Positions 6,951 through 60,868 of a stretch of DNA of 64,000 nt are shown here, in pieces (positions within the stretch are counted from its first letter, which is position 1; every line of letters begins with the position of its first letter). A program made the translations under genes and the position numbers. The notes below the pieces were generated by a model, which was given only the letters and a program-made list of their open reading frames with translations, made no database searches and was not told the origin of the DNA. Source of the stretch: an uncultured Bacteroidia bacterium. GTDB lineage: Bacteria; Bacteroidota; Bacteroidia; J057; CALLMJ01. The stretch lies in the NCBI GenBank assembly GCA_964493765.1, contig CAZBPK010000146.1:200-64199 (forward strand). The letters run 5' to 3'.

Positions 6951-7514
6951 TTATTGAGGAAGCTTTGCTGCAATTTTTATGTCAGGAAATAAATCTTCAA
7001 TAAGAGGATTTTTTAAGCCGTTAGAATCAAAGTAATAAAATTTTTTACCTTGGTTTTCACTTAAAATTAAAAGATAAGCACTAGAATTTACGGGTGTTCC
7101 TTCAAAATTCATGGTTAATTTAAATGGTACAATTCCATAAATGATGTTATTGTAAATGGTAAAGTCTTTAGGGTCTTCAATGGTTACTTTATCGATGGTA
7201 AAATTACCCATAGCCTGCATTTCTAGTTGAGTATTTTCAATTAAAGTTTCTTTACCACCAGCCATGTCAATAATTTTGGGGTGCATTAAATCTTTTTTAA
7301 CGGCAATGCTAAAATCATTATTTAACCACCCTTTTTCAAGGGTTTTTAAATCATTTGAGATGATTTTAAGCATTTCAGGAGTGGGTTGAAAAGGTTTGGA
7401 TTTAAGTTTTTGTGCGTTGAGGTTAAGAATAAAAAATGAAAATATGAAAAATGGAATAAATTTGTAAAAGCGTGAGGGATGTGTAGGGCACGAAGTGGCA
7501 CTGCCTTTTTCCAC
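6951..7514 (-). CDS. small secreted protein of unknown function (start uncertain)
   Basis: A signal-peptide-like FYKFIPFFIFSFFILNLNAQ is followed by a ~150 aa mature part. No ATG, TTG or GTG lies between repeat copy A and the signal peptide. The nearest in-frame start is the GTG at 7514, inside the repeat. The listed ATG at 7643 would add about 55 aa translated from the repeat. Confidence 0.5.
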   Translation of the reverse strand: MEKGSATSCPTHPSRFYKFIPFFIFSFFILNLNAQKLKSKPFQPTPEMLKIISNDLKTLEKGWLNNDFSIAVKKDLMHPKIIDMAGGKETLIENTQLEMQAMGNFTIDKVTIEDPKDFTIYNNIIYGIVPFKLTMNFEGTPVNSSAYLLILSENQGKKFYYFDSNGLKNPLIEDLFPDIKIAAKLPQ

Positions 7515-7600
7515 TTTTAAAAAAAGTGGAAAAAGGATTGCCGAAGCGAAAGCGAAGCCCGAAGCAGCCCGACTCTGAGTGTTAGCGAAGAGGCACGCCC
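7470..7600 (+). repeat. GC-rich dispersed repeat, full copy A
   Basis: GCGTGAGGGATGTGTAGGGCACGAAGTGGCACTGCC, then a 15-bp perfect hairpin, then GGATTGCCGAAGCGAAAGCGAAGCCCGAAGCAGCCCGAC...GGCACGCCC. It aligns with copies at 13169, 19284, 44429 and 60733. Confidence 0.9.
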
Positions 7601-7617
7601 TAAAAAATAAAACAAAA

Positions 7618-9090
7618 TTAAATTTTTTGTCTATGACCATCATACACTCTGAAACAATTTAAACTTTGAGAAAAAAATTCTGGTTTCATAATAGATTTAC
7701 CCAGAAACATTCTTGCACATTCTTGAATACCTTCGATAATGGAGGGATGGGGGTGTATAAGCTCTGCAATGGCTTCAATGCTTAAATTTTGGGCAATCAA
7801 TAAAGCAACTCCTTGAATGGCAGTACTTGCATGCTCACCGATTGCTCGCATTCCTAATATTTTACGATGTTCATCATCAGATACTAAAATTTTAAAAAAG
7901 CCTCTAGGACACTGCATACACAAAGCTCTGCCAATATAATCATAAGTATAAGTAGCAACTTGGTATGGAATGCCTTTTTTCTGAGCTTCTAATTCGTTCA
8001 TACCCACACCCGCAACCTCAGGGTGTAAAAACATAATAGTGGATATATTTTCGTAAATCAAAGGTTGGTCTTTGCCATAAATTTTTTCTATAACATGCCT
8101 ACCTTCTAATTCCCCTACATTCACTAAACAAATATCAGCGGTTGTATCACCTACAAAATAAATATTTGGAATTTCTGATTGTCCATCTTTTGTATCAATA
8201 TAGCCCTTAGAATTAAAAGTTAGACCAGCGTTTTGTAAACCAAGCCCTTCAAAATTAGGAACTCTACCTACGGAAATTAAAGCTTTTTCTGCATAAAATG
8301 TTTGAGTTTTACCGTCTTTAAAATCTAAAATATATTTAACTTTTTCGTCTTCAATTTCCATGGAAATTAAAGAAGCGTTTTTATGAATATGCACACCTAG
8401 ATGTTCTAAATTTTGTGCAACCATAGTAGCAATATCTTCATCTTCAAAGGGTAAAATTCTATCGGTTTTATCAATTAGATAAACTTTAGTTTTACCAAAA
8501 TTAGCGAAAATAGTAGCAAATTCACAACCAATTACACCAGCTCCAAGAATTACTAAACTTTCTGGATAATCTTTTAAATTGTGAATACCATCGGAAGTCA
8601 TAATAATTTTTTCATCAATAGGAATGGTGGGTAATTTTCTGGGTCTTGAACCCGTAGCAATGATTATATGGTCAGCCCAAACTAATTCATTTGAGCCATC
8701 AGAATAAGAAATTTCAATTTGATTTTTATTGAGCAATGAGCCAGAACCATGAGCAAATTGAAAAAATTTGGAATGTAAGGTTTGAATTTGATTCAATTGA
8801 AATTGAAGTTGTTGTGTACGAGTTTGAACTGCATGATTCATGAGTTCAGAAATTTTAGAATAAGGAGGCAATGGGTAATTTTCAGAGGCTAACTCTGAAT
8901 GTTTCATATTGTAAACATTCTTGGAAAGTTCCCAAAGGGTTTTAGAAGACAAAGCACCATTGTGTAACCCAGCACCCCCAATTTTATCCCTTTCAATAAG
9001 TATAACTTTTTTTCCAAGGTCTAAAGCTCTCATAGTAGCTGCATATCCCGAAGGACCTCCACCAATCACAGCAATGTCGTATTTTTCCAT
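7618..9090 (-). CDS. FAD/NAD(P)-dependent pyridine nucleotide-disulfide oxidoreductase family protein (Lpd/SthA-like) without the redox-active cysteine pair
   Basis: DIAVIGGGPSGYAAT FAD fold, a second GAGVIGCEFA dinucleotide fold, and the C-terminal HPHPSIIEG interface motif. The CxxxxC position reads GGAGLHNGALSSK. Confidence 0.75.
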   Translation of the reverse strand: MEKYDIAVIGGGPSGYAATMRALDLGKKVILIERDKIGGAGLHNGALSSKTLWELSKNVYNMKHSELASENYPLPPYSKISELMNHAVQTRTQQLQFQLNQIQTLHSKFFQFAHGSGSLLNKNQIEISYSDGSNELVWADHIIIATGSRPRKLPTIPIDEKIIMTSDGIHNLKDYPESLVILGAGVIGCEFATIFANFGKTKVYLIDKTDRILPFEDEDIATMVAQNLEHLGVHIHKNASLISMEIEDEKVKYILDFKDGKTQTFYAEKALISVGRVPNFEGLGLQNAGLTFNSKGYIDTKDGQSEIPNIYFVGDTTADICLVNVGELEGRHVIEKIYGKDQPLIYENISTIMFLHPEVAGVGMNELEAQKKGIPYQVATYTYDYIGRALCMQCPRGFFKILVSDDEHRKILGMRAIGEHASTAIQGVALLIAQNLSIEAIAELIHPHPSIIEGIQECARMFLGKSIMKPEFFSQSLNCFRVYDGHRQKI

Positions 9091-9269
9091 ACCTCTAAAT
9101 CAAATAACAAAATTAAATATTTTTTGAAATGGAAAAAAGATTTGCGAAAAATTAGTATCCGTTTCCCTTATAATTTGTTTTTTTGTTATAGAGATTAGTC
9201 TGTTGAATTGATAGCCAGAGGCAAACGAATTTTGTTCTTAATAAATTCTTTTTTTATAAATTAAATTTC

Positions 9270-9277
9270 TATATTTG
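9270..9277 (+). promoter_or_regulatory. Bacteroidota-type -7 box (TATATTTG)
   Basis: Matches TAnnTTTG and lies 23 nt upstream of the ATG at 9300. Confidence 0.5.
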
Positions 9278-9299
9278 AGTTACCAATATAAATCATTTT

Positions 9300-10043
9300 A
9301 TGCAAAAAGTTATTGAAAAAAATTGGAATGATTATCAAAAGAAAGGAGATAAACCTCTTGTGGTAGTTTTAACAGGCGCAGGGATTTCTCAAGAAAGTGG
9401 AATTAGTACATTTAGAGATGCGAATGGCTTATGGGAAAATCACAGAATTGAAGATGTTGCCAGCCCAGAAGGTTTTGCTAAAAATCCTGAATTAGTTTTG
9501 CATTTTTATAATTTAAGACGAGCTCAAGCACAAGAAGTTAAGCCCAATGATGCTCATTTTGCTTTAAAGGATTTAGAAAAAGATTTTGAAGTTGTAATTA
9601 TTACTCAAAATGTGGATAATCTACATGAAAGAGCTGGTTCAACCAATGTTTTACATTTACATGGTGAATTATCAAAAGTAAGAAGCACAGCTTATCCAGA
9701 ATTAATATATGAAATCGGCGGATTACCCATAAAATTAGGAGATTTGTGTGAAAAAGGCTCCCAATTAAGACCTCATATTGTTTGGTTTGGTGAAGGTGTA
9801 CCTAATATTTATCCTGCTGCTGAAATTACTAAACAAGCAGACTTTTTTATGATTATTGGTACATCTTTGGTTGTTTATCCTGCTGCAGGATTGATTGATG
9901 AAATTCCTTTTAATTCCCCTATATTTGTAATTGACCCTAATATCCCTATTCATTTTCATGATTTTAAAAATTTATATATTTTCCCTGAAAAAGCTACAAC
10001 CGGAGTAATCAAAGCTATTGAAAAATTGAAATCCATAATTTGA
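9300..10043 (+). CDS. cobB: Sir2-family NAD-dependent protein deacylase
   Basis: GAGISQESGISTFRD, QNVDNLHERAG, LHLHGEL and HIVWFGE motifs. Confidence 0.88.
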   Translation: MQKVIEKNWNDYQKKGDKPLVVVLTGAGISQESGISTFRDANGLWENHRIEDVASPEGFAKNPELVLHFYNLRRAQAQEVKPNDAHFALKDLEKDFEVVIITQNVDNLHERAGSTNVLHLHGELSKVRSTAYPELIYEIGGLPIKLGDLCEKGSQLRPHIVWFGEGVPNIYPAAEITKQADFFMIIGTSLVVYPAAGLIDEIPFNSPIFVIDPNIPIHFHDFKNLYIFPEKATTGVIKAIEKLKSII

Positions 10044-10111
10044 TTTTTAGAAATTGTTCACATTTTTTTGTAAATAATTGAAATAATTGTTCCATATATT
10101 CATAAAAAAAA

Positions 10112-10119
10112 TATTTTTG
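10112..10119 (+). promoter_or_regulatory. Bacteroidota-type -7 box (TATTTTTG)
   Basis: Matches TAnnTTTG and lies 18 nt upstream of the ATG at 10137. Confidence 0.5.
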
Positions 10120-10136
10120 CTACAAATTTACTTTAT

Positions 10137-13100
10137 ATGGATTTTTTCAAATATTTTGCGCTTTCATTGACAATCCTTGTTTTTTGGTTTAACTCATCTG
10201 TTCTTTCTCAACCCGATATAAGAAAGAAAGGTACTAAAGAAGAAAAAAAAAATAATACCAATAATGAACAACAGCCCATTAAAACCGATAAAGGTTTTTA
10301 TCAAATTTCTGGAAAAGTTGTAGATGAAAACAAAGAACCTATGTCTGGAGTTTATGTTTTAATTGAAGGTACTTTAAACGGAACTATAACAAACAATGAA
10401 GGCTTTTTTACCATAAATTTAACGGAAAATAAACCTATAAAAATACGATTATCATATATTGGTTATGCTACTCAGTTTGTAGAGGTGAATCCAGAAATCA
10501 ACAAAGAGATTTCTGTTAATATGAAAGAAGAATTTTTGCAAGCCAATGAAGTCGTAATTAGTGCTTCTAGAATCCAAGAAAGGATTATTGAATCACCGGT
10601 AAGTATAGAAAAAATGGATTTAGTTACCATCAAAGAATCTCCATCAATTAGTGTTTATGAAGGTATAACAATGTTAAAAGGGATAGATCAATTAGGAGGT
10701 TCAATGCTTTTTAAAACCATAAATACAAGAGGTTTTAACTCTGCTACTAATCCTAGATTTGTGCAGATGTTAGATGGAATGGATATGCAAGCACCAGGAT
10801 TAAACTTTGGTATAGGTGTTTTAAATGGTGCATCTGATTTAGATGTAGAAAGTGTTGAATTGATTCCTGGAGTTGCTTCGGCTTTATATGGACCGAATGC
10901 TTTCTCGGGTCTTATGAATGTAAGAACTAAGAATCCATGGCAATATCAAGGGGCATCAGCATCTTTAAAGTTGGGTGCTAATCATATTGATAAATATGAC
11001 CCTCAGACAAGCCCTTTTGTTGATTTTAATGCTCGTTATGCGAAAGCATATAATGAAAAATTTGCATTTAAGATAAATTTGGGCTATTTAAAAGCCAATG
11101 ATTGGCAAGCAACAGATTACAGAGACATTGCTAATTATGCAGGTACAATTAATAATACATTAAGCGATAAACCCGGCTTTGATGGTCTAAATATGTATGG
11201 TGATGAAGTTTCTGCCATTTTTGATGCCACATCATCAGGCGGGTTAGTTACACAGCCTATTCGTATTGCAAGAACAGGTTATAGAGAAGTTGATTTGGTG
11301 GATTACAATACTTATAACTTAAAAGCAGATGTAAGTTTACATTACAAAATTAAACCCAATTTGGAATTCATTGGAATGGGCAGATGGAATAACGGAACTA
11401 CCGCTTACCAAGCCGTAAATAAGATTTCTATTAATCAGTTTTTTTATCATCTATACAAATTAGAGCTTAAAGCAGATAATTTTTATGTTAGGGGTGTGGT
11501 ATCTATGGAAGATGCTAATAAAACTTATGATTCAAGATTTGCCGCAATCAATTTGAACAGAATGGCTAAGCCTGATGAACAATGGTTTACACAATACTTG
11601 TTAGCATACGGTAATAATAATTTTTTAATTAACGCAATAAGGGGTTTTGCGGGTTTAGATCCCATTCAAGCAGGAAGTGACGCAGCAGCTAGGGCTTTTG
11701 CTGATGGAGACAACACAAACGTAATTCGTATTTTGCAAGAAAATCAAGACCCGTTTTATTTGGCTAACAAGCCATTTGTTGATTATGTTTTTGGTGGAAG
11801 AGGAAGATTTCAACCCGGAACTCCTGAATTTCAAAATGCTTTTAAAAGTATAACCTCAAAACCCGGCTTTTTAGATGGTGGCGCTTTGTTTGTAGATAAA
11901 ACTGCTATGTATTCTACCGACGGTCAATATGATTTTAAAAATTTGATTTCTTTTTTGCATTTAACTGCTGGTGGCAATATTAGAATATTTGATTTGAACT
12001 CTCAAGGTACTTTATTTTCTGATACGGTAGGAAATCCAATAAGAGTGTGGGAAGTAGGGGCTTATTTTCAAGCTACAAAAAGTTTAGTAAATGATAGATT
12101 AAAAATTATTGCTTCTGCAAGAGCAGATAAATCCAAAAATTTCCAAGTGGTTTTTAGTCCTAGATTAGCTACGGTTTACTCATTTGGAGAAAATAAAAAT
12201 CATAATATTCGTGTAAGTGCTCAAACGGGCTTCAGAAACCCCACTTTGCAATCTCAGTACATTGATTTGAATTTAGGCTTTTCTAAATATATTGGTGGTG
12301 TAAAAGACGCTTTTAGTCCGTATGGTGTAGAAAATAATTATTCTCAAGAATCAGTGAATCAATTTTTAACAGAATATCAAAGGCTTTTATCGCAAGGTAT
12401 GGATACCACAAGTGCTATAAACCAAGCTACACCTCTACTCAAAAAATTAGAAATGAAGAATGTTAGACCAGAACTCATCAAAACTTTTGAGTTTGGTTAC
12501 AAAGGTTTAATTCAACAAAAACTTTATATTGACGCTTATGCATATTACAGTTTATATGATTATTTTGAAGGTGCTGTGAATATTGTTGCTCCTGCAAGAA
12601 AATGGAATGAACAAACTAAAAGTTGGGAATATTCAGAGCTAAATCCCCAAGTAATTGCTAATAATTCTGCACCAAAAGCATATTATAGAAGATATTATAA
12701 CGCCTCTGAACAAGTAAGTGCGTGGGGAGCTTCTATTGGAGCAAGTTACAACTTAAACAACAAATGGTCTTTTAATGGTTCTTATACATATACAGATGCA
12801 TTATTTGATGAAAATGATGATAATCAATTAATAGCAAAATTTAATACACCACCCCATAAAGTTACAGCAGGTGTTGCAGGAAGGAATTTATTCCAAAACT
12901 GGGGTTTTTCTATTCAATACCGTTGGCAAGATGCTTTTGAATTAGAAGAAAGCTATGCACAAGGAATCGTTCCTGCTTTTCATAATTTAGATGCTCAAGT
13001 TTCTTATAAAATACCCTCAATGAAAACCACTTTAAGAATCGGTGCTACCAATGCTCTCAATTTGAGACGTGTGGAAATGTTAGGTGGTGGAACGATTGGG

Positions 13101-13145
13101 GTTTTACCGTATTTTCAAATCACTTATGACGAATTATTTAGGTAA
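10137..13145 (+). CDS. TonB-dependent outer-membrane receptor with an N-terminal carboxypeptidase-regulatory-like domain
   Basis: 1002 aa with a signal peptide. GKVVDENKEPMSGVYVLIEGT...YIGY is CarbopepD_reg-like. The plug region contains VELIPGVASALYGPNAFSGLMNV. A long beta-barrel-like C-terminus follows. Confidence 0.85.
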   Translation: MDFFKYFALSLTILVFWFNSSVLSQPDIRKKGTKEEKKNNTNNEQQPIKTDKGFYQISGKVVDENKEPMSGVYVLIEGTLNGTITNNEGFFTINLTENKPIKIRLSYIGYATQFVEVNPEINKEISVNMKEEFLQANEVVISASRIQERIIESPVSIEKMDLVTIKESPSISVYEGITMLKGIDQLGGSMLFKTINTRGFNSATNPRFVQMLDGMDMQAPGLNFGIGVLNGASDLDVESVELIPGVASALYGPNAFSGLMNVRTKNPWQYQGASASLKLGANHIDKYDPQTSPFVDFNARYAKAYNEKFAFKINLGYLKANDWQATDYRDIANYAGTINNTLSDKPGFDGLNMYGDEVSAIFDATSSGGLVTQPIRIARTGYREVDLVDYNTYNLKADVSLHYKIKPNLEFIGMGRWNNGTTAYQAVNKISINQFFYHLYKLELKADNFYVRGVVSMEDANKTYDSRFAAINLNRMAKPDEQWFTQYLLAYGNNNFLINAIRGFAGLDPIQAGSDAAARAFADGDNTNVIRILQENQDPFYLANKPFVDYVFGGRGRFQPGTPEFQNAFKSITSKPGFLDGGALFVDKTAMYSTDGQYDFKNLISFLHLTAGGNIRIFDLNSQGTLFSDTVGNPIRVWEVGAYFQATKSLVNDRLKIIASARADKSKNFQVVFSPRLATVYSFGENKNHNIRVSAQTGFRNPTLQSQYIDLNLGFSKYIGGVKDAFSPYGVENNYSQESVNQFLTEYQRLLSQGMDTTSAINQATPLLKKLEMKNVRPELIKTFEFGYKGLIQQKLYIDAYAYYSLYDYFEGAVNIVAPARKWNEQTKSWEYSELNPQVIANNSAPKAYYRRYYNASEQVSAWGASIGASYNLNNKWSFNGSYTYTDALFDENDDNQLIAKFNTPPHKVTAGVAGRNLFQNWGFSIQYRWQDAFELEESYAQGIVPAFHNLDAQVSYKIPSMKTTLRIGATNALNLRRVEMLGGGTIGVLPYFQITYDELFR

Positions 13146-13168
13146 AATCATCATTTCAAGAAGGATAA

Positions 13169-13300
13169 GCGTGAGGGAAGCGTAGGGCACGAAGTGGCAC
13201 TGCCTTTTGATGCTGAGTTTACCGAAGCAGAAAAAGGATTGCCGAAGCGAACAGCGAAGCCCGAAGCAGCCCGACCCGAACGAAGTGAGGGGCACGCCCA
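13169..13300 (+). repeat. GC-rich dispersed repeat, full copy B
   Basis: Both GC-rich arms match copies A and E. The central segment is different but still self-complementary (CCTTTTGATGCT...AGCAGAAAAAGG). Confidence 0.9.
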
Positions 13301-13352
13301 AATATTAACAAACCTAAAATCGCTATTTTTTTATCAATCCAAAAAATCTTAG

Positions 13353-13360
13353 TAATTTTG
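13353..13360 (+). promoter_or_regulatory. Bacteroidota-type -7 box (TAATTTTG)
   Basis: Lies 15 nt upstream of the guaB ATG at 13375. Confidence 0.5.
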
Positions 13361-13374
13361 CAGAAAATATTTTT

Positions 13375-14844
13375 ATGCAAGATTTTAATGAAAATATACC
13401 ATTAGGTTTAACTTATGATGATGTATTATTAGTGCCAGCTTATTCAGAAGTTTTACCGAAAGATGTAGATTTAACTACTCATTTAACAAAAGAAATTCAA
13501 TTAAATGTTCCAATTGTGAGTGCCGCAATGGATACTGTTACAGAATATCAGTTAGCGATTGCGATTGCTCAAGAAGGAGGAATAGGTTTTTTGCATAAAA
13601 ATATGAGTATTCAAAACCAATGTGATCAAGTAAGAAAAGTAAAACGCTCTGAAAGCGGTTTAATTGTGGATCCTATCACATTAACTCCTGAGCATACAAT
13701 TGCCGATGCTTTTTATATGATGTCGGAACATAAAATTGGTGGAATTCCTGTAATTGATGAAAATGGTAAATTGGTAGGAATTATTACTAATCGTGATTTA
13801 CGTTTTTATGAACCCTCTGAAAGAAAAATTTATGAAGTGATGACCAAAGATCATTTAATCACTGTTCCAGAGGGTACAACTTTAGAGGAAGCGGAATGGT
13901 TATTAAAACAACATAAAATAGAGAAGTTGCCTGTAGTGGATAAAAATTATAAGTTAATTGGATTGATTACTTATAAGGATATTCTCAAGAAACAATATTT
14001 TCCAAAGGCTTGTAAGGACCATTTAGGAAGATTGAGGGTGGGAGCCGCTGTGGGAATTGCAAAAGATACAGAGGAACGGGTAGGCTCATTGTTAGAGGCT
14101 TCTGTAGATGTCATTACTTTAGATACTGCACATGCTCATACCAAAACGGTTATAGATTTAACACGATTATTGACTAAAAAATATAAAAATATACAGTTGG
14201 TTGTTGGAAATATTGCAACAGGTGCCGCAGCTGAAGCCTTGATTGAAGCTGGAGCATCTGCAGTGAAAGTAGGAATTGGTCCTGGAAGTATTTGTACTAC
14301 ACGTGTAATTGCTGGGGTAGGAGTTCCTCAACTTTCTGCAATTATGAATGCAGCAAAAGTTGCAAATCAAAAAGGAATTCCTTTGATTGCTGATGGTGGA
14401 ATTAAGTATTCTGGGGATATTGTGAAGGCATTAGCCGCAGGAGCAGATTGTATTATGGCGGGTAACCTTTTTGCAGGCACAGACGAAAGCCCTGGAGAAA
14501 CCATTATTTATGAAGGAAGAAAATTTAAAACTTATAGAGGAATGGGTTCTTTAGGAGCAATGAAAGAAGGTTCTAAAGATCGTTATTTCCAAGATATGGA
14601 AGACGATATTAAAAAATTAGTTCCAGAAGGTATTGAAGGAAGAGTTGCTTATAAAGGAAAGCTTTCTGAAGTAATTTATCAATTAGTAGGTGGTATTAGA
14701 GCGGGTATGGGTTATTGTGGTGCAAAAAATATGAATGAAATTAAAAAAGCTCAATTTGTGCAAATTACAAATGCTGGATTAAAAGAAAATCACCCACATA
14801 ATATTCAAATTACCAAAGAAGCACCTAACTATTTTAGGTCTTAA
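13375..14844 (+). CDS. guaB: IMP dehydrogenase
   Basis: 489 aa. [10 protein letters not shown], tandem CBS region, [11 protein letters not shown] catalytic Cys loop, and [17 protein letters not shown]. Confidence 0.95.
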
Positions 14845-14858
14845 AACTGCCCTTTCGC

Positions 14859-16907
14859 TTGAGAAAATTCTTTAGAAAATATTTTTTTCAATTATTGCCC
14901 TCTTTTACAAGTTGGGTAATGATGTTTTCTATTCAGTTATTCCAAGCCATTTATGATTTGAACAAAGGAAAAATTTTATTCCCTATTCCTAACTATGTAT
15001 ATGATTTTTTCCATTTTTTATTTTTGGTTTTTATTTACCAAGCAGGAAAAACCATAGTAAAAAAAGAATCTAAACCCAAATCTTTAGAGGTTATTTGGTT
15101 AATTGTAGGTTTAGGCGGAACAGGTATTATAATTAATGCTTTAAGCAATTGGGTAAGCAATATTTACATGGCTAATTATTCGTCTATTTTTTGGTACAAT
15201 CTAGATAAACATATAGGAATTATTACAAATACTTACTTTTTTATAACACTGGTTTTTGTTTATAGGCAATTAATACTTTTCCGTTCTACAAAACCAAAAC
15301 AAAACGCTTGGTTTTTATTAGATATATCCATTTATAGTGGCTTTTTGCTCTTATTGGATAAGTATTTAAACATACCTCAATTGATTATTATTGCTTACTT
15401 TTTGGCAAGTATTGGGATTGTGTTATATCTATCAATTCATACAGAATGGGTGGCTTACTTAAACTTAAGAGAAAAATTTTTAGGCATATTTTTCATGTCT
15501 GTTATTTTGATGATTCAATTAAGCTATCTTTTTTTGGTAGATGTAAAATATGTTATGAATTATGACTTTAATTTTGCTGATAATTTACACTTGAACGTAA
15601 TCTACTTTTTTACTGTATTATATACATTTTTTTGTATTTTAGTTTTAGCCTTTAACCTACCCACTAGTTCATTATATGAATTAAGGCAATTAGAAAGAAA
15701 AGCAATCAGCGAAATCAATCAAGTTATCTTAAAATCTAAATTTGACCCTAACGAAGTATATAAAATATTGATTCATTACGGCATGCTTTGTGCTAAAGCA
15801 GATTTTGGTTGGATTCAAATTTTTCAAAATGGTGAGGTAAAATTAATTCAAATTAAAGGTTTCAATGAAAATTTAGCCTATGAAGTTCATCATATAATTA
15901 ACAAATATTGGACATATCAATTAGATAAAAAAAACTTCTTTATTGGTGATACTCAAAGACTTTCATTATTTAAAAGTAAATCTTTAGAAATGGAGTCTTT
16001 TTTTGCAACCAAAGTTTCTACACAAGACAAAGAATATGGGGAACTCCTCTTAGGTTGGAAACATAAAAATGCTTTTGAGTTAGAATTATATTCTTTTTTA
16101 TCTATAATTAGCGAACAAGCTGCTATTGCCATTGAAAATAAAGAATTATTTAAAAAATCTATTTCCTTAGAAAGATACCAAGAACAATTAAAAATTGCTA
16201 AGGATTTTCAAGAGAAAGTTTTACCTAAAATTAGTTCTATCGAAGGATTTGATATTCATGCTATCAACCAAGAAGCCGATGAAATTGGAGGTGATTATTT
16301 AGAGATTTATCAAGATGATGAATATATTAATATCATTATAGCAGATGTTGCTGGAAAAGGAACTACTGCTGCTTTTTATATGGCAGAACTCAAAGGTATG
16401 TTACAAATTCTTTTTCCTTTAAAATTAGAACCTTTAGACTTCATCAAAAAATTAAATTCAGCAGTTTCTCAATGCTTATCACCCAATTTATTTATTACGG
16501 TTAATTTTTTAAGAATACATAAATCTACTCTCCTTTGCCAATGGATTAGAGCAGGGCACACCCCTATATTACACTTCTCTTTTTTAAATAAAAAAATTTG
16601 GGAATATCAACCCAAAGGAATTGGTTTAGGAATATTAAGAAAGTCCATTTCTGAAAAAAATTTTGATATACATGAATTCCAATTACAAAAAAATGATGTA
16701 ATTTTATTATTTACAGATGGTATTGTGGAAGCAAGAAATGAAAACAATGAAGAATTAGGTACTTACATTTTAAAAGAATGGCTTGGTAGTTTTTTCTCTC
16801 TATCTTCTACAGAAATCAATTATTCTATTTTAGAGCAAATGATGGCTTTTACCAACGAAAATAAAATTGATGATGATTATACACTTTTAACATTGAAAGT
16901 TCAATAA
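14859..16907 (+). CDS. membrane-anchored GAF + SpoIIE/PP2C-type serine phosphatase (RsbU-like)
   Basis: The N-terminal ~270 aa are polytopic, followed by a GAF-like middle. The C-terminus has GGDYLEIY, DVAGKGTTAAFYMA, FTDGIVEA and DDDYTLL. The listed start is TTG, and the ATG at 14919 is an alternative. Confidence 0.8.
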   Translation: MRKFFRKYFFQLLPSFTSWVMMFSIQLFQAIYDLNKGKILFPIPNYVYDFFHFLFLVFIYQAGKTIVKKESKPKSLEVIWLIVGLGGTGIIINALSNWVSNIYMANYSSIFWYNLDKHIGIITNTYFFITLVFVYRQLILFRSTKPKQNAWFLLDISIYSGFLLLLDKYLNIPQLIIIAYFLASIGIVLYLSIHTEWVAYLNLREKFLGIFFMSVILMIQLSYLFLVDVKYVMNYDFNFADNLHLNVIYFFTVLYTFFCILVLAFNLPTSSLYELRQLERKAISEINQVILKSKFDPNEVYKILIHYGMLCAKADFGWIQIFQNGEVKLIQIKGFNENLAYEVHHIINKYWTYQLDKKNFFIGDTQRLSLFKSKSLEMESFFATKVSTQDKEYGELLLGWKHKNAFELELYSFLSIISEQAAIAIENKELFKKSISLERYQEQLKIAKDFQEKVLPKISSIEGFDIHAINQEADEIGGDYLEIYQDDEYINIIIADVAGKGTTAAFYMAELKGMLQILFPLKLEPLDFIKKLNSAVSQCLSPNLFITVNFLRIHKSTLLCQWIRAGHTPILHFSFLNKKIWEYQPKGIGLGILRKSISEKNFDIHEFQLQKNDVILLFTDGIVEARNENNEELGTYILKEWLGSFFSLSSTEINYSILEQMMAFTNENKIDDDYTLLTLKVQ

Positions 16908-16933
16908 TTTTTTTATATTTGCAAATTATTTTC

Positions 16934-17281
16934 ATGATTGCGATGAATGTTCAATTAAATGATTTTGAAAATTATACAACCGTTTATCTAATAGGAGAAA
17001 TTGATGCCTCAACTTCTATCAATATTCAAAATGCACTTCAAAATCTTTTAGATAATGGTCAAAAAAATATCCACATTAATTGTGAAAAACTTGAGTATAT
17101 TTCTAGCGCAGGGCTTGGAGCTCTTATGTCTTTTGTAGAAGAAATTGAAAATTCTAATGGTTTAATGGTTTTTTCAGATTTACAACCTAAAGTTTTTAAT
17201 GTTTTTCAACTTCTTGGTTTAGACCAAATCATGAAAATTGTGGACAATCATCAACAAGCTGTAACTTTTTTTCAGAATTAA
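16934..17281 (+). CDS. STAS-domain anti-sigma-factor antagonist (RsbV/SpoIIAA-like)
   Basis: LIGEIDASTS...LEYISSAGLGALMS carries the conserved phosphorylatable Ser context. A TATATTTG -7 box lies at 16914-16921. Confidence 0.8.
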   Translation: MIAMNVQLNDFENYTTVYLIGEIDASTSINIQNALQNLLDNGQKNIHINCEKLEYISSAGLGALMSFVEEIENSNGLMVFSDLQPKVFNVFQLLGLDQIMKIVDNHQQAVTFFQN

Positions 17282-17319
17282 CGTATCAATACAATATAAG
17301 ATTATTCTATTTTATTTTT

Positions 17320-17757
17320 ATGACAAATATGGCTAAACTCACTATAAATTGCGATTTAAAAAATCTAGAAATTATCAGAGATTTTATTCAAGAAAATTTG
17401 AATGATATCCCTTTAACTTGTGATATAACCTCCAACCAAATTGTTTTGGCAGTTGATGAAGCCTGCGCCAATTCTATTATTCATGGAAATCATTGCGACT
17501 CCAGAAAAGAACTCTCTGTTGAAATTTACAAAGATGATTTTAACGATTTACATATTAACCTTTACGATTCCGCTCCTCCTTTTGATATTACCAGTTTTAA
17601 AATGAAAAATATCAAAGAAAAAATCAAAAATGCGGAAAATGGTGGTATGGGAATTTGCTTAATTCAAAAAATTATGGATGAAATTGCTATTGAAAGATAT
17701 CCTGATTTTTGTGTCTATAAATTTGTTAAACACTTAAAAGACCCCGTTTCTAAATAA
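17320..17757 (+). CDS. anti-sigma regulatory factor / serine-protein kinase (RsbW/SpoIIAB-like, HATPase_c)
   Basis: DEACANSIIHG is an N-box-like motif and GGMGICLIQKIMDE is a G-box. At 145 aa it has the typical size and follows the STAS gene. Confidence 0.75.
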   Translation: MTNMAKLTINCDLKNLEIIRDFIQENLNDIPLTCDITSNQIVLAVDEACANSIIHGNHCDSRKELSVEIYKDDFNDLHINLYDSAPPFDITSFKMKNIKEKIKNAENGGMGICLIQKIMDEIAIERYPDFCVYKFVKHLKDPVSK

Positions 17758-17806
17758 TTTTTATGATAATCTTTACAAAACTTGCTTTATTGTTTAGTTT
17801 TGTATC

Positions 17807-19273
17807 ATGAAAAAACTTTTATTACTGATCGTCCCTATTTTTCTAATTCTTATTTATTATTTTCCTATTGAATTACAATCTCAACAAAAACAAAAATTAG
17901 ACCTACAAACTGCATTAGAGAATTTTAAAAAAGACCCTTCCATGCAAAATGCTTCTTGGGGTTTTTATGCTTATAATATCAACCAACAAAAAGTTGAAGC
18001 TAATTTTCAAGAAAATTTAAGTTTAATTCCAGCTTCAAGTTTTAAAACTTTAGCTTGTGGCAGTGCTTTATTAAAATTAGGACCAGATTACCAATATAAA
18101 ACCATTTTAGGATACAAGGGAACCATTGATAAAGGAATTTTAAAAGGGAATTTAATCATCAAAGGTAGTGGTGACCCCACATTAGGAACTGATAGAGTCA
18201 ATGGAGGTTTAAATATTGATGCTTTTTTAAAAAAATGGGCTTCAGCAGTGAAAACTAAAGGAATTACAAAAATTGAAGGAGACTTATTGGTTGATGTTTC
18301 TTGCGTAACACCAGATGCCATTGCCCCCAATTGGTTATGGTCAGATATAGGAAATTATTATGGATCAGGTTTTTATGGAGTAAATATTCGTGAAAATCAT
18401 TATGGCATCATTTTTAAATCAGGCTTTAAAGAAGGTGATTCTACTACTATTCGCTATACATTCCCAAGATTTCCTGATTTAGTGATAGAAAACGCCGTAA
18501 AAACTGGAAAAGCCGGTTCTACCGATGATGCTTATATTTACGGAAGTCCTGAAAGCAATTTTAGAAGAGTGGTTGGAACGATTCCCCCTAACCAAGAATA
18601 TTTTGAAGTAAAAGGAGCTTTACCCAATCCGCCTTATCAAGCTGGCAGATTCTTAAAAGACATGCTAAACGGTTTAGGGGTAATCTTCACAGGAAAAATT
18701 ATTGTAACCTATCAAAATCAAATTTTAACCGAAATCATTGATACCCACAGCTCCCCCAAACTTTTAAGTATTGTTTATACCGCTTTAGGACTCAGTCATA
18801 ATTTAATGACAGAAGCCATATTCCAAACTGCTTTTAAAAAATCTAATGAACCCATGAGTTTATTTTCCGCTATTGAGGGCTTGAAAAAAACTTTAGATAG
18901 TGCCAAAGTAGATACCAAAGGTTTATTTATTTCCGATGGAAGTGGATTATCCAGAACTAACCTTATAACAGCCAAACAAATGGTAGAAATTTTAAAATAT
19001 TATGACCAATCCAAAATCGGTAAGGATTTTGAAAAGTGTTTACCCGTAGTAGGCGAAAGCAATAATTTTATCATTTTAAATCAGCTAATTGAAAACAAAG
19101 GAAAAATTAAAATGAAAAGTGGTTATAAGTCTCGAGTAAGAAGTTTTGGTGGTTACGCTTATAATAAAAATAACGAAAAAATTGCATTTGCTTTTATCGT
19201 AAATTACTACACCTGTAGCAACATAGAGTCCTTATATAAAATGGCACCTGTTATAAATGCAATAGCAAATTAA
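17807..19273 (+). CDS. dacB: D-alanyl-D-alanine carboxypeptidase/endopeptidase, PBP4 (S13) family
   Basis: Signal peptide, PASSFKTL (SxxK), GSGDPTLG, DGSGLSRTN (SxN) and KSGY (KTG-like). Confidence 0.85.
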   Translation: MKKLLLLIVPIFLILIYYFPIELQSQQKQKLDLQTALENFKKDPSMQNASWGFYAYNINQQKVEANFQENLSLIPASSFKTLACGSALLKLGPDYQYKTILGYKGTIDKGILKGNLIIKGSGDPTLGTDRVNGGLNIDAFLKKWASAVKTKGITKIEGDLLVDVSCVTPDAIAPNWLWSDIGNYYGSGFYGVNIRENHYGIIFKSGFKEGDSTTIRYTFPRFPDLVIENAVKTGKAGSTDDAYIYGSPESNFRRVVGTIPPNQEYFEVKGALPNPPYQAGRFLKDMLNGLGVIFTGKIIVTYQNQILTEIIDTHSSPKLLSIVYTALGLSHNLMTEAIFQTAFKKSNEPMSLFSAIEGLKKTLDSAKVDTKGLFISDGSGLSRTNLITAKQMVEILKYYDQSKIGKDFEKCLPVVGESNNFIILNQLIENKGKIKMKSGYKSRVRSFGGYAYNKNNEKIAFAFIVNYYTCSNIESLYKMAPVINAIAN

Positions 19274-19283
19274 AAGAATAATT

Positions 19284-19418
19284 TGGGCGTGCCCCTTGCT
19301 TCGTTTCACTTCGCTGCGGGTCGGGCTGCTTCGGGCTTTGCTATCGCTTCGGCAATCCTTTTTCCACTTTTTTCAAAAGTGTCAAAAGGCAGTGCTAAAC
19401 CCTTTGCATCCCTCACGC
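19284..19418 (-). repeat. GC-rich dispersed repeat, full copy C (inverted orientation)
   Basis: TGGGCGTGCCCCTTGCTTCG...GGCAATCCTTTTTCCAC...GGCAGTGC...CATCCCTCACGC is the reverse complement of the A/B/E consensus. It lies between convergent genes. Confidence 0.9.
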
Positions 19419-19455
19419 ATTATCAAAGTAAACTTTGAATTTCTGCGTTAATAGC

Positions 19456-20037
19456 TTATATGTAATAATTGTAAGCAAATAAAAAACATACTATTCCTAA
19501 TCCATAACCTACTAATATTTGCCAAATATCATGGGATTTTAAAAACATTCTTGCCCAAGCAACCTGCTGAGAAAAAGCTATAGAGAAGAGTATATAAAAC
19601 CAATGAAACTCAAAATAAAGAAACATAAATACAGTAAATGCACCCATTCCAATCATGTGTAAGGAAATTTTCCAGAAGTAAGTAACTGGCAAAGCAAATG
19701 CAGTTAATAAAATGGAAGACAAAGTAATTACTTTCACAAAAACTGGCTCAGAATTAGAGTAAAAGAAATAAAATACAGTTGTTCCTACCAAAGCAAAAAG
19801 TAAAGGAAAAATTCTATATTCTTTAGGAACAACCCACTGATGAGTTTTGGGCATTTTAGAAAAACGTAAATAAACTAAAGAAAAAATTAAAGGTAAAATG
19901 AGAAAGTAAAGCCATACTGCCCACTGATTATTAGGTTGAGTGATTAAAAAAGAAGCCATTAAGGCTTGTAAAAAAGAGGGATAGAAAAGTAAAGAAATAA
20001 TCTTTGCATATACATCAATCCCTCTTAAGATATTCAT
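19456..20037 (-). CDS. polytopic membrane protein, possibly PAP2-family phosphatase
   Basis: About six TM segments. KISLHMIGMG and FLKSHDIWQILVGYGLG loosely resemble PAP2 motifs C2 and C3. Confidence 0.4.
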   Translation of the reverse strand: MNILRGIDVYAKIISLLFYPSFLQALMASFLITQPNNQWAVWLYFLILPLIFSLVYLRFSKMPKTHQWVVPKEYRIFPLLFALVGTTVFYFFYSNSEPVFVKVITLSSILLTAFALPVTYFWKISLHMIGMGAFTVFMFLYFEFHWFYILFSIAFSQQVAWARMFLKSHDIWQILVGYGLGIVCFLFAYNYYI

Positions 20038-25933: not shown

Positions 25934-28900
25934 ATGAATAAATTTTTACTTTTACTAGTTTTAAGTTTGGTAATTTTTACAAAATCAGTGATTCATGCAC
26001 AAGTTTTGTCTACTGGTGCTGGAACTGGAAATTGGAATGATCCCAATACTTGGAGTTGTACTTGCATTCCATCTGCAACTAGTGATGTAGTAATTCAGGC
26101 AGGGCATACTGTAAATTTGACTTCAAATCAAACCATTGCAAATGTTACCTTACAAGGTTTACTTAGTTTGAATACTAATTCAAGGACACTAACTGTAACA
26201 GGAAATTTTACGGTTACTGGAAATAGTACTATATTTGGTGGAGCGACCAGTAGGGTTATTAATATTGCTGGAAATTTAGAGATCAATAATTCTGCATCCT
26301 TAGCTATGGGTGCATTTAATATGACGGTTACTGGAAACATTATTAACAATGGAACTTTATCCATTAATTCTAATACTGGTGTTAGAACTTTTAATGGTTT
26401 AGTAATCAATAATGGAACATGGACAACTACCACAGTAATAACAAGCACTAACCTTTTATTTAGGAACGGAATCAATAACTTTGGCACTTTCAATGCTGGA
26501 GCTGCACGTTTCACAAATAACAATCAATCAATTGGTGGAACAAATTTAATAACTTTTAATAACCAAGTAATTATTGCTGGTGCAATTACTGTTATTAATA
26601 ATAATCCCAGTTTGGTCTTTAATAACGCTGCTAGTATCGATGGAACAGTGGCTGGTTCTACCTTAACTGCTGGCGCTGGTTCTCAAATTTTCTATGCTTC
26701 TTCTGTAAGACCTATGATTACTGGGGTTTTGGATGCAGGTTCTAATCCTAATACTTTTACTTATAATCGTACAGCGAACCAAGATATAAGGACTGGTGAT
26801 TATTATAATTTAATAATAGAGGGCACTGGTGATAAAGTTTTAAACGGTGCTGGTAATTTAAATATAGTAAACAATATAACTGTAGAAAATACTATTAATC
26901 AATTGTCTTGTAATGGAAAAAACACTACAACTGCTGGTACTTTCACTTTAAAGTCCACGTTTAATCATACTGAAGGGGTTGTTACCCAGCATCAAATGGG
27001 GAATTTTGTTCTAGATGGTGGGTACTTAGACCTAGGAAACAGTGTTTTAGATGGTTGGGTAATCAACAATGATTTTATTGTAACTTCAAACGGGGGGACA
27101 ATTCATACAGCAGGTGAACCAACCAATGGTTTTACAGTGAATGGTAATACTTACATCAATGGGGCTTTTATTTTTACTCATAATAACGTTTACTCATAAT
27201 AACGTTAATGCAAGAGCATTTTTTAATGGGTTAGTAACTATTAACATGGGAGGTTCTTGGAACTCCACGGCTGTTACAAGCTTTGAGATCATTAGATTTC
27301 GTGCAAATATCGTAAATAATGGTTCTTTCAATGCTGGAGGAGTTACTTTTGATATTAACAATCAAAATCTAACAGGCAATACATATAACAAAGCTACTGC
27401 TAATATAGAGGGAGTAACACTAGATAATCAAGCTATCGTATATTTAACTTCTAATGGTACTTGTTTAACAGGAACAGGAACATGGCTACAATCCCCCAAT
27501 TCTGAACTTTATTTAAGGGGAGATGCAGATGTTACAGTATTTAATGCTTCTGCTGCCCCCAATATCGTTACTTATTATGATAATAAAAATAATCATGCGG
27601 TAAATCCTGGAACGTATTATAATCTAACTATTAATAAGACCGCTGGTAGTGATGCTGATATTGCAGGGACCAATGCTGGAGCAGTTTCTGTGCTTAACAG
27701 CTTAATCGTTCAGAATGGTAGACTTGGACTTAATACTGCAGGAGACCAGATTAATGTGGCTTCAGGAGCAACTACTTTAATTACAGGCGCTTCTTCAGAT
27801 ATTTATTTCACAAATGCTACAACAACAGCCGATTTAGCGGTACTAACTATTCAGAATGGCGGTTCTATCTCGGGGAGTGCTACAGGTAATGTTCTTGCAT
27901 CCTCTTTTACTACTGCCGGTACAGGAGCCAATTTAGGCAGATGCAATTTTACAGTGAATGGATTAACTACTTTGAATGCTAATCTTAACTTCACTTTAGA
28001 TGATGGTGTAAAAACGTTTGTGGGATTAGTAGATATACTCGCCGGATCTGCTTGGAGCTCTACAATTATTAATACTGCAGGAAATCTTAATTTTAGAGGA
28101 GGTATCAATAGTAATGGAAGTTCTTTTTTAGCGAACAATGCTACCTTCAATACCAATAATCAAGATTTGAATGGTACAACTCCATTAATCTTTAATGGTA
28201 CTGTAACTATTAATGGAGTGCGAGTGAATAACTATACTACCGTAGATTTAGCATCAACAGCAACTTCATTAACAGGTACAGGAGGTGCACAATGGATACA
28301 ACAGCCTAGCTCTTATTTGAAGATTGCTGGTGATGTGAATTCTGTTACCATGGGAACCAGTGCTTTAAATAATACTGTTGAATATTATAATAATGTACAA
28401 CAAAATGTGGGTGCAGGAACTTATCATCACTTACTCATCAATAAATCAGGAAATCGTGCTGATGTTGCAGGGGCTGCTGCCGGCACAATTAACGTGAATG
28501 GCTCATTAGTGGTTCAGCAAGGTGAATTAAGACTCAACAACGTTGGTGATGTTATTGATGTTGCTTCCTCTGCATTTACGTTAATTTCAGGTTCTACTTC
28601 TAGATTAGAGTTTACCGCTGGGGGTACTGCAAATTTAAATGATTTTACTTTCTCCAATTCTGCTGCTATTGGTACAGGAACTTCTACATCTACTGGTAAT
28701 ATTACTACCAACACCTTTACCGTTTCAGGAACTGGAACTATGAATTTAGGTAGATGTAATTTTACTACTAATGGTGTAACCAATGTTAATGGCAATTTAT
28801 CGCTCAATAGTAATACAGGTGTAAAAATTTTTAACGATTTAGTAACTATTGGCGCCTCTGGTTCATGGACTTCTACTACCATTACAACCACTGCAAATTT

Positions 28901-30680
28901 AGTTTTTAGAAATAGCATTGTTAATAATAATACATTTACTGCTGGTGCAGCAACTTTTGACACTAACGACCAATCCATAAGTGGTAATACTTTTAATTTC
29001 TCAGGTCAAATTACGGTTACTGACATAAATCTTACTAACCAAACCACAGTGAATCATACATCTACAGCCGCTGCATCTCTAACAGGTACAGGAACTTGGA
29101 CGCAAGCCGCAAATTCTACTTATAATACTACCGCTTCTACTATCACTATCAATGCAATGAACGCTTCGGCAAGCAATAATACGGTAAATTATAATAGAAA
29201 TAACACACAAACAATATTCCACCCCGTTAATGGAGAATATTTTCATTTAATTCTTTCTAACACATCTGGAAAAACCGCTTCTGCTGGTACAAAAATTATT
29301 TTAGGCAATTTAACGATTAGTGGAACTGCACAACTTAACGTATCTACTAATAACGTTGATTTAGAAATTAGAGGCGATTGGACAAATTCAAGCAATAATG
29401 CTGATGCATTTGTAGAAGGAACTCGTACTGTTACATTTAATGGCTCATCTGCTCAAACTATTTCTAATACAGCAAATCAATCTGGAACTGATTTTTATAA
29501 TCTGGTTATTAATAACTCTTCTTCTACCGGAGTAATTGTTTCGGGTAATGCTGGCTTACATACCCGTATCGTTGCAAATGGAACTTTAACCTTAACCAAT
29601 GGTTATGTTTATACAAACTCTAATAATATGATTGTGGTACTTAACAATGGTGGTTCTACTGGTGGTAGTATCAATAGTTTTGTAAATGGTCCTATTAGAA
29701 AAATTGGTAATCAGGCATTTATATTCCCAACAGGGCAAGATGTTTTACCGATGGGTAAAGGACCCGAAGATGTTTGGGCGAGAATAGGTATTTCAGCCCC
29801 TACTAATAATAATACCCAGTTTACTGCCCAGTACTTCTTTACATCTTATGGCGATATGACCAAAGATGCTACTTTAACTCACGTTTCATTCCATGAATAT
29901 TGGACATTAGACAGAGCAGTTACTACTAATGCCGTTCAAGTTACTTTATATTACGAAAGTGCAACTCGTAGTTTTATTACAGATTACACTTCTGGTGATT
30001 TAGTGGTCGCAAGATATACAGCAGGTAATTTCTGGACTTCAGAAGGTCAGTCTGCTAGAAGCAATTCTGATCCAGGTTGGATAACTTCTAATACCGTTAC
30101 AAATTTTAGTCCTTTCACTTTTGGTTCTATTACTGGCGGCAATCCTTTCCCCGTTGAATTAGCGAATTTTTCTGCAAATGCTTTATCTAATAAAGTTCAA
30201 TTAGATTGGACAACCGCTTCTGAAATTAATACAGATTATTTCCAAGTTGAAAAATCTATTGATGGAATCAATTTTGAAAAAGTATTTACTCAAAAAGCCG
30301 CTGGAAATTCTAACATGGCTTTAGATTATCAAGGTTTTGACTATGAGCCATTTAAAGGTATTTCTTACTATCGTTTAAAAACTGTTGATCTTGATGGTAA
30401 GTATGTTTATAGTAATGTTGTAGCTGTAAACTTTCAAAGTGCATTTGCAATTTCTGTTTATCCTAACCCAACGAAAGATCACTTAAATGTTCAATTGTCT
30501 GAAAATTCCAATGAAATACATATTTCAATTTTTGATTTAACTGGAAGATTGGTTTTTGAAGATCACAAACAATATACTAACAAAGTTGAGATTAATACTC
30601 AAAATTGGACTCCCGGTATGTATATTGCTAAAGTTAAAACCCAAAGTGGTGAATTCTCCAAGAAGATTGTAAAAGAGTAA
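25934..30680 (+). pseudogene. ~1576-aa T9SS-secreted repetitive adhesin-like protein, split into two ORFs (25934-27199 and 27141-30680) by a 16-nt tandem duplication
   Basis: ORF1 ends ...FIFTHNNVYS* and the ORF2 frame contains FTHNNVNARAFF. Removing one 16-nt copy gives a single frame of 4731 nt. Signal peptide MNKFLLLLVLSLVIFTKSVIHAQ. The C-terminus VYPNPTKDHLNVQL...GMYIAKVKTQSGEFSKKIVKE is a T9SS type-A sorting domain. Confidence 0.8.
27175..27206 (+). repeat. perfect 16-nt tandem duplication (TACTCATAATAACGTT x2)
   Basis: 27175-27190 is identical to 27191-27206. It creates the stop at 27197-27199. Confidence 0.95.
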
Positions 30681-42204: not shown

Positions 42205-42247
42205 AAAAAAAATCAGAATTTTCAAATAATTGAAAATTCTGATTTTT
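42205..42247. terminator. bidirectional rho-independent terminator
   Basis: An A8 run, then a perfect 13-bp stem TCAGAATTTTCAA-ataa-TTGAAAATTCTGA, then T5. It lies between the convergent murD and the 42267-42740 gene. Confidence 0.8.
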
Positions 42248-44428: not shown

Positions 44429-44558
44429 TGGGCGTGCCCCTTGCTACGCTGCGGGTCGGGCTGCTTCGGGTTTCACTTTGTTTCAGCAATCCTTTTGACA
44501 CTTTTTATCAAAAGTGTCAAAAGGCAGTGCCACTTTGTGCCCTTCGCATCCCTCACGC
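44429..44558 (-). repeat. GC-rich dispersed repeat, full copy D (inverted orientation)
   Basis: TGGGCGTGCCCCTTGCTACGCTGCGGGTCGGGCTGCTTCGGG...CAATCC, then a perfect 15-bp hairpin (44491-44524), then CAGTGCCACTTTGTGCCCTTCGCATCCCTCACGC. Confidence 0.9.
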
Positions 44559-52578: not shown

Positions 52579-52819
52579 ATAGTGTTCGTTGCTACTGGAT
52601 AAAAATAAGTGAGTTAATTGTTGAACTTTATTTTTGTACTCTTCATCTTCTTGGCTGAAAAATTCTATTTGAAAATCTTCGTTTAGAATTTCATTAATTT
52701 GTGAAATTAATATTTAATAATCATCAGGTTTGCTAACTTTAATACAATAAAGAATAGTGAGATAAGTGGTAAAGAATTACACTCTAATTTCCTTTGACTA
52801 CTCATATTTTGCAACAAAT

Positions 52820-52852
52820 GCAGTGCCACTTGCTGCCCTTCGCATCTCTCAC
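52820..52852 (-). repeat. terminal fragment of the GC-rich repeat
   Basis: GCAGTGCCACTTGCTGCCCTTCGCATCTCTCAC compares with GGCAGTGCCACTTTGTGCCCTTCGCATCCCTCACGC of copy D. Only this arm is present. Confidence 0.65.
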
Positions 52853-52883
52853 CATTCATAAGTTTTAATTCATACTATTCATT

Positions 52884-60732: not shown

Positions 60733-60868
60733 GCGTGAGGGATGCGAAGGGCACGAAGTGGCACTGCCTTTTAACGCTTTTGAAAAAAGTGGAAAAAGGA
60801 TTGCCGAAGCGAACAGCGAAGCCCGTAGCAAGCCCGACCCGAATGCGAAGCATGAGGGACACGCCCCA
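60733..60868 (+). repeat. GC-rich dispersed repeat, full copy E
   Basis: GCGTGAGGGATGCGAAGGGCACGAAGTGGCACTGCC...GGATTGCCGAAGCGAACAGCGAAGCCCGTAGCAAGCCCGACCCG...GAGGGACACGCCCCA. Confidence 0.9.

Follow-up and report, generated by a model that had tools for sequence, protein, structure and literature searches.

A GC-rich structured repeat dispersed in an uncultured Bacteroidia bacterium and the probable origin of its perfect hairpin stems

Copies, fold and distribution of the repeat

The window analysed here is a 64,000-nt stretch of contig CAZBPK010000146.1 (assembly GCA_964493765.1) from an uncultured Bacteroidia bacterium, and its content, which includes the dcw cluster, nuo genes, guaB, a lpd-like gene and genes for cargo proteins of the type IX secretion system (T9SS), is that of an ordinary Bacteroidota chromosome. 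It contains five hairpins, named here after the repeat copies A to E, whose coordinates and sequences, reported in an initial annotation of this DNA, were all confirmed by reading the window. The five hairpins are homologous, each being the centre of a repeat of ~130 nt. The hairpin is the apical module of this repeat, a GC-rich, non-coding, non-autonomous and dispersed element (~150 nt with its AT-rich ends) in an AT-rich Bacteroidia host. We consider it reasonably probable, taking the account as a whole, that the repeat folds into a rod, that the perfect stems of copies A and D came about by templated correction of one arm, and that the hairpin is not a canonical intrinsic terminator.

The window has six copies, five of them full and one partial, 5-25 kb apart and in both orientations (Table 1). 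Their GC content is 53-69% against ~30% for the window, and purines make up 60-66% of the strand that we call canonical. Along this strand the repeat consists of GCGTGAGGGATGCGAAGGGCACGAAGTGGCACTG, the tip hairpin, ATTGCCGAAGCGAAAGCGAAGCCCGAAGCAGCCCGACCC, a small variable hairpin and GGGGCACGCCC, in that order, and its scaffold comprises five conserved helices (GCGUG/CACGC, GGG/CCC, UGC/GCA, GGGC/GCCC and GGCAC/UUGCC), to which a side hairpin and the exchangeable tip are added. The inverted ends of the core, GCGTG...CACGC, are only 5-7 bp long. As whole elements, copies A, D and E fold into rods with z scores of -4.0 to -5.3, and copies B and C score -2.5 and -0.8, respectively. In an alignment of 11 copies the consensus structure, which was derived from the very sequences scored, is paired in 96% of cells, with 11 pairs altered on both sides; none of 500 shuffles reached as high a value, and slid controls paired in ~40% of cells. 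The purine-rich strand outfolds its complement in 11 of 11 copies, and the one-sided pair changes on that strand comprise six G-C to G·U events versus two A·C events. Taken with the preponderance of G·U over A·C, this asymmetry of folding hints at a single strand, either as DNA or as RNA, as the relevant form.

The perfect 15-bp stems that the initial annotation had described for the tips of A and D are present and lie far beyond chance. Against dinucleotide shuffles, a control that had been proposed with them, their DNA folding energies of -14.0 kcal/mol (A) and -14.7 kcal/mol (D) correspond to z scores of -5.5 and -7.9, and the tips of B, C and E, each of which contains an internal 2x2 loop, score about -3.5 each. 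In copy B the inner TGCT/AGCA does lie within CCTTTT/AAAAGG as claimed. Perfect hairpins with a stem of at least 11 bp amount to 14 hits at six distinct sites in the window, with ~0.5 hits expected from order-1 Markov simulations. On its two sides the tip stem adjoins GCACTG and ATTGCC; its T and A runs are internal, and the flanking runs formerly attributed to it do not exist.

The cores lie ~10-130 nt past a stop codon (12-38 nt for the copies in the window). With respect to the flanking genes, ~5 copies are in sense and ~5 in antisense orientation, and ~3 stand between convergent genes. No replication-strand bias was found in the window, which has a monotonic GC skew, the canonical strand being plus in three copies and minus in three.

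The scaffold recurs in the Bacteroidia metagenome-assembled genome (MAG) AMR_MDS_3733 (loci L004, L016 and L026), in the Flavobacteriales MAG SKYG26 (L013) and in the metagenome contigs L030 and L031. In a scan of a genome collection with a flank-anchored pattern, four of the 28 loci among the matches listed were real relatives, the matches being mostly random GC-rich ones. The family sample comprises about 14 members, six of which have hairpins of the T type. In one further locus, L035 (4069-4330), the repeat is enlarged by an extra hairpin after GGGC and by three tandem hairpin modules of ~36 nt (CCCTCCTATTAGGAGGGAAGGGAGGTTATAT) in the right scaffold, indicating that the scaffold tolerates module insertions at several points. 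A search of the window against Rfam gave no match at gathering level, the hits at E<=10 being generic hairpins of 11-19 bits against cut-offs of 42-106. Viral, plasmid and phage collections yielded no genuine match, and locus L032 from the viral scan was set aside as a chance match. A full-text literature search with strings of the element returned nothing relevant, and the papers examined on transposable elements of the miniature inverted-repeat type (MITEs) do not describe the repeat. It is apparently a so far undescribed family of structured repeats in uncultured Bacteroidia.

Table 1. Positions of the repeat copies, their tip hairpins and associated features in the window
Feature	Position	Strand	Description
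Copy A, core	7470..7600	+	GCGTGAGGG...GGCACGCCC; 53% GC; rod fold
Copy A, hairpin	7504-7536	+	CCTTTTTCCACTTTT-AAA-AAAAGTGGAAAAAGG; perfect 15-bp stem; both arms of right-arm type (TCCAC/GTGGA)
Copy A, entire inserted segment	7464..7616	+	GTAAAA, core and TAAAAAATAAAACAAA; absent from L035, L036, L045 and L046
Copy A, left 9-bp target-site duplication	7455..7463	+	AATAAATTT; present once in empty alleles
Copy A, right 9-bp target-site duplication	7617..7625	+	ATTAAATTT; holds the stop codon of the lpd-like gene (7618-7620)
Open reading frame of 230 aa, secreted-protein candidate	6951..7643	-	reads through copy A in frame; start overlaps lpd stop; insertion after codon 9
Copy B	13169..13298	+	24 nt past the stop of a TonB-dependent receptor gene, upstream of guaB
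Copy B, hairpin	13203-13237	+	CCTTTT-GA-TGCT...AGCA-GA-AAAAGG
Copy C	19286..19418	-	between convergent genes
Copy C, hairpin	19357-19389	copy on -	two mismatches; consensus T-type stem with tandem G·A/A·G
Copy D	44431..44558	-	perfect-stem tip
Copy D, hairpin	44491-44524	copy on -	CCTTTTGACACTTTT-TATC-AAAAGTGTCAAAAGG; perfect 15-bp stem; both arms of left-arm type (GACAC/GTGTC)
Copy E	60733..60865	+	AA/GA mismatch and one G·T in tip
Copy E, hairpin	60767-60799	+	two mismatches (AA/GA) and one G·T
Copy F, partial and decayed	52790..52855	-	left scaffold half alone, up to GCACTGC; ~30 nt from the terminator at 52887-52918
Bidirectional intrinsic terminator	42208-42247		A run, perfect 18-bp stem, T run; between convergent genes
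Bidirectional intrinsic terminator	52887-52918		A run, perfect 14-bp stem, T run; between convergent genes

Insertion of copy A and the reading frame across it

Four loci whose lpd genes are 84-85% identical to that of the window (L035, L036, L045 and L046) lack the inserted segment of copy A in its entirety, and a lone AAATTTAAT stands there instead. In the window the insertion is bordered by AAATTTAAT and AAATTTATT, which are identical at eight of nine positions, and the site is filled at the same exact point in L037 (93% identity) and in L033 and L034 (88%). The element is, or was, mobile, insertion with target duplication being demonstrated at this one site. Among the other copies, candidate direct repeats flank L016 (11 bp, exact), C and L030, with 0.18 per copy expected by chance in such AT-rich flanks; over all copies the duplications are clear for A, where they are validated, and for L016 alone, the remainder being at chance level. 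We propose that the targets of insertion would be A/T-rich sites immediately past stop codons, with the repeat in either orientation and ~9 bp of the target duplicated. Relatives at 64-79% identity contain zero copies in ~80 kb and so provided no orthologue of copy D. Logan short-read contigs from several samples (L029, L037 and L043) stop within copies of the repeat, as would be expected if a high copy number in the genome disrupted assemblies.

Copy A is also the copy that lies inside an open reading frame (ORF). The gene following the lpd-like gene begins with MMVIDKKFN, to which a signal-peptide-like stretch is joined, and its element-free orthologues in the four loci with an empty site encode 174-175 aa. 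All three filled alleles are open in the same frame and differ from one another by indels of 48, 6 and 3 nt. That these are all multiples of three has a chance of ~1 in 27 and is stronger evidence than the openness itself, which is weak by nature because in most copies two of the three frames of the pyrimidine-rich reverse strand are open. There is no in-frame ATG, GTG or TTG between the element and the signal-peptide-like stretch. Differences within copy A are spread over the three codon positions as 8/7/8, those in the remainder of the gene as 40/20/68. This even spread indicates that the conservation of copy A is not due to the encoded peptide, and constraint at the protein level was rejected for this copy. 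The earlier view that the hairpin is not tied to a coding frame is borne out.

History of the stem and the readings of the repeat

Pairing of the tip stem is maintained across orthologues and subfamilies. The six T-type tips are paired in 92% of cells and show four pairs changed on both sides, a result matched by one of 500 shuffles, so that pairing of the stem columns, for which a covariation check had been suggested, exceeds chance. L033, the 88% orthologue of A, contributes most of this signal, its interior being rewritten on both arms as CCTTTGCTTAC.../...GGAAGCAAAGG (GCTTAC/GGAAGC) with one A·G mismatch remaining. Different subfamilies hold a stem at the tip with different sequences (CCTTT..., CCCT... 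and CCTTTGG...). The proposal of the initial annotation that selection or some mechanism acts on the hairpin as DNA or RNA is thus of the right kind; the comparison of A with D, on which it was built, has to be revised.

This becomes clear from the mismatch in the consensus stem. In canonical orientation the stem of C reads CCTTTT-GA-CACTTTT / AAAAGTG-GA-AAAAGG, the tandem G·A/A·G mismatch separating an outer stem of 6 bp from an inner one of 7 bp. Besides C, the GA/GA next to the outer stem occurs in B despite its unrelated inner stem, in L037, the 93% orthologue of A, and in L004, L016 and L026, the stem of the last two being CCCT-GA-AC...GT-GA-AGGG. At this position E and L030 have AA/GA. 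Its presence across subfamilies and in the orthologue of A suggests that GA/GA is the consensus of the family at stem positions 7-8 and, most likely, its ancestral state. Perfect stems among the collected copies are confined to A and D, in each of which a single arm departs from C: the left arm of A is the exact reverse complement of the right arm of C, the right arm of D is the exact reverse complement of the left arm of C, and in both cases GA has become TC with all other stem positions identical. As each is a one-arm derivative of the consensus, what separates A from D does not amount to compensation on two sides, and the double-sided changes formerly read from it are a comparison of two such derivatives. 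C and E had been described as chimeras with 2-3 mismatches; the mismatches are there (two in C, two and a G·T in E), but C is of the consensus type and no chimera.

It is proposed that the ancestral tip stem had, between an inner stem and an outer one of 4-6 bp, a 2x2 tandem G·A/A·G mismatch, as three subfamilies and one orthologue suggest. The perfect stem of A would then be secondary, its left arm having been rewritten as the exact complement of the right one, and so would that of D, in which the left arm served as template for the right. A plausible route is intra-strand template switching or hairpin-templated repair at the quasi-palindrome, which could change several adjacent bases per event and would make selection unnecessary. 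Gene conversion may add mosaics by exchanging modules between copies, and the scaffold may be kept near-constant by a sequence-specific partner or by continual homogenisation between copies. Template switching is known to perfect quasi-palindromes and to imitate compensatory change (PMC8794818, PMC7202029, PMC8604942). Its signature, a multi-base change on one arm that produces an exact complement of the other, is seen in both A and D, and each may have originated in a single event.

Several points weigh against this account. The ancestral state is deduced from few and related sequences (six of the T type, ~14 members in all). Selection for pairing would lead to identical end states through two point substitutions confined to one arm; A and D would both be fixed on one arm with a chance of ~1 in 4, and a single templated event is unproven. 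Private loop changes in A (AAA) and D (GATA) mark the two stems as anything but fresh conversions. As to a mobile repeat, there is no transposase among the ORFs of the 64-kb window, the terminal inverted repeats are short (5-7 bp), and target duplications are clear in a minority of copies. Lastly, plain selfish DNA does not usually show an inserted copy conserved so far beyond the neutral level, which leaves room for a host or RNA function.

This conservation is pronounced at copy A. Between the window and L033 the orthologous cores are 86% identical, whereas identity at the fourfold-type third positions of the neighbouring lpd gene is 38%, i.e. saturated; between the window and L037 the corresponding values are 87% and 61%. 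Comparison of these alleles suggests that copy A is constrained at the level of the nucleic acid, and either homogenisation among the copies or a sequence-specific partner may account for its conservation. Scaffold variants are common to pairs of copies in differing combinations (B/E, C/D and D/L033). At the site orthologous to copy B, L037 (2154-2218) has a truncated copy with a T-type centre (GACGCTTTTGAAAAGTG) instead of the B-type one, pointing to module exchange or to re-insertion at the same site.

If a partner is responsible, the repeat might be an undescribed strand-asymmetric structured element that is read as single-stranded DNA or RNA by a dedicated protein, either a counterpart of the enzymes acting on repetitive extragenic palindromes (REPs; the REP-associated tyrosine transposases, RAYTs) and on attC sites (the integrases) or an RNA-binding partner. 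Its conserved features are the tandem sheared G·A pairs, the GCGNAGC/GNRA mini-hairpins, the invariant scaffold and the exchangeable tips, and such a partner would account for 86% identity beside saturated synonymous sites as well as for the recurrence of the scaffold in distant Bacteroidia. We regard this as a tentative possibility. The 64-kb window and the short loci of relatives contain no RAYT (Y1 transposase) gene.

A functional structured RNA is a further possibility, though in our opinion a doubtful one. The repeat would act as a 3' untranslated region (3'-UTR) stabiliser or terminator, or as a multi-copy small RNA, with the stem kept by ordinary compensation and the tandem G·A serving as an RNA motif. 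The better fold of the purine-rich strand in all 11 copies compared, the excess of G·U over A·C changes, GNRA-like loops (GCGAAAGC) combined with tandem sheared G·A as classic RNA motifs, a scaffold that exceeds the neutral level at an orthologous site and is kept across distant MAGs, and the position of the majority of copies just past stop codons are all in its favour. However, with the mixture of sense, antisense and convergent orientations no strand is consistently part of an mRNA, inspection of the sequences revealed no conserved upstream promoter, and Rfam has no match. The empty-site polymorphism with target duplication, the decayed copies (F and the L037 orthologue of B) and the intragenic copy indicate mobile DNA instead. 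Moreover, the motifs do not distinguish between the two nucleic acids: GCGAAGC, GCGTAGC, GCGAAAGC and tandem G·A are stable as DNA and as RNA, and d(GCGAAGC) and sheared G·A are just as stable when the DNA is single-stranded. Two narrower candidates were discarded. A promoter of the repeat's own, TAnnTTTG, fits upstream of copy A alone and is partly target sequence, and a kink-turn was rejected since the tandem G·A has no adjacent 3-nt bulge.

The polarity of the stem changes assumed in the initial annotation, with A- and D-type palindromes as parents related by two-sided compensation and with C and E as recombinant chimeras, appears improbable. It agrees with the fact that C carries exactly the left arm of D and the right arm of A, and exchange between copies does happen in this repeat family. 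But GA/GA stands at the same place in the B-type tip, in the AMR_MDS_3733 type from another organism and in the 93% orthologue of A, so that the same chimera would have to arise many times, and A and D are both singletons.

That the central hairpin is a symmetric bidirectional intrinsic terminator, as first suspected, is very unlikely: a strong stem-loop shortly past stop codons in copies of both orientations, and several genes ahead of a copy without another obvious terminator (inspected by eye, no scan having been run on this point), would suit a terminator, but the stem is neither followed by a T tract nor preceded by an A tract (its flanks are GCACTG and ATTGCC), a terminator scan of 7000-20000 called none of the three copies there (hairpins at 7504, 13203 and 19357), the window's real bidirectional terminators (Table 1) differ in showing the classical A run, stem and T run, and the MAG copies swap the T/A-rich stem for a purine-rich one with very weak predicted stability. 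Possibly the repeat forms a 3' structure that would impede exonucleases or polymerases in either orientation.

On the account preferred here, in which one-arm correction perfected the stems of a mobile rod-folding repeat, the hairpin is a clear natural case of stem covariation of a compensatory appearance that can arise mutationally, one arm templating the other, without selection, and this matters for claims of functional RNA that are based on covariation. Pipelines for annotation or non-coding RNA could mistake the repeat for through-running ORFs or for a new RNA motif. Short-read assemblies break at members of this family, which can enter a gene in frame and whose conservation far exceeds the neutral rate.

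Three other features of the window were recorded. Beside copy D, at 44636-44960 (+), a 102-aa PDDEXK_9 ORF comes after an AAA-ATPase-like N-terminus (MKQLPIGINSFEKII) but in a different frame, so that the gene is probably broken. At 25934-30680 (+), two long ORFs, one of them ending in a T9SS sorting domain, contain internal repeats spaced ~800-840 and 1600 nt, and the region looks like a repetitive surface protein. A 106-nt direct repeat of 75% identity (52980-53085 and 53552-53657) joins two adjacent small genes on the minus strand, 52944-53381 and 53507-53956, which are probably tandem paralogues.

Comparison with known systems

The stems of A and D resemble the products of template switching at quasi-palindromes, described by the Ripley model, in that adjacent bases of one arm have been turned into the exact complement of the other arm (PMC7202029, PMC8604942, PMC8794818). 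Here the event is deduced from paralogous and orthologous copies, and the corrected mismatch is itself conserved in the repeat family. With intrinsic terminators the repeat shares a stem-loop shortly past stop codons, the duplication at copy A even containing the stop of lpd, but its hairpin is without a U tract, has the T and A runs within the stem and is embedded in a larger rod.

REPs and bacterial interspersed mosaic elements (BIMEs), palindromes tagged with GTAG/CGTC and associated with RAYTs of the Y1 type, are likewise GC-rich imperfect palindromes behind genes in both orientations, with a conserved stem imperfection that gives the two strands different hairpins and with a sequence kept across species (PMC3733652). 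Their unit is 20-40 nt versus the ~130-nt composite described here, and the present repeat has a target duplication. The assignment to REPs was rejected on the size of the unit and on the tag, GTAG being found in A and B alone (GTAGGGC), with GAAGGGC or GGAGGGC in the others. If the scaffold were the substrate of a dedicated enzyme, this would be a new REP/RAYT-like system in Bacteroidota. Integron attC sites were discarded as well, as the ends bear no GTTRRRY and the copies, which occur in both orientations, are scattered among housekeeping genes at distances of 5-25 kb.

The Rickettsia palindromic elements (RPEs), reportedly introduced by Ogata et al. in 2000, are palindromic repeats of 100-150 nt that are found in frame within genes with the frame left open, as copy A is. 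They belong to a different phylum and are unrelated in sequence, and just one of the six window copies is intragenic, so that this is a resemblance only. Like MITEs, the repeat is small, non-coding, multi-copy and mostly intergenic, shows empty-site polymorphism, is patchy across lineages, and at copy A, the one site open to a check, is flanked by a target duplication of 9 bp. It differs from them in the short terminal inverted repeat of ~5-7 bp (GCGTG...CACGC), in the lack of a parental insertion sequence or transposase in the window, and in its conservation, which extends over the whole internal scaffold and is not focused on the ends, with tip modules that can be exchanged. The repeat is a new family within the small structured dispersed repeats of the MITE, REP or RPE-like kind.

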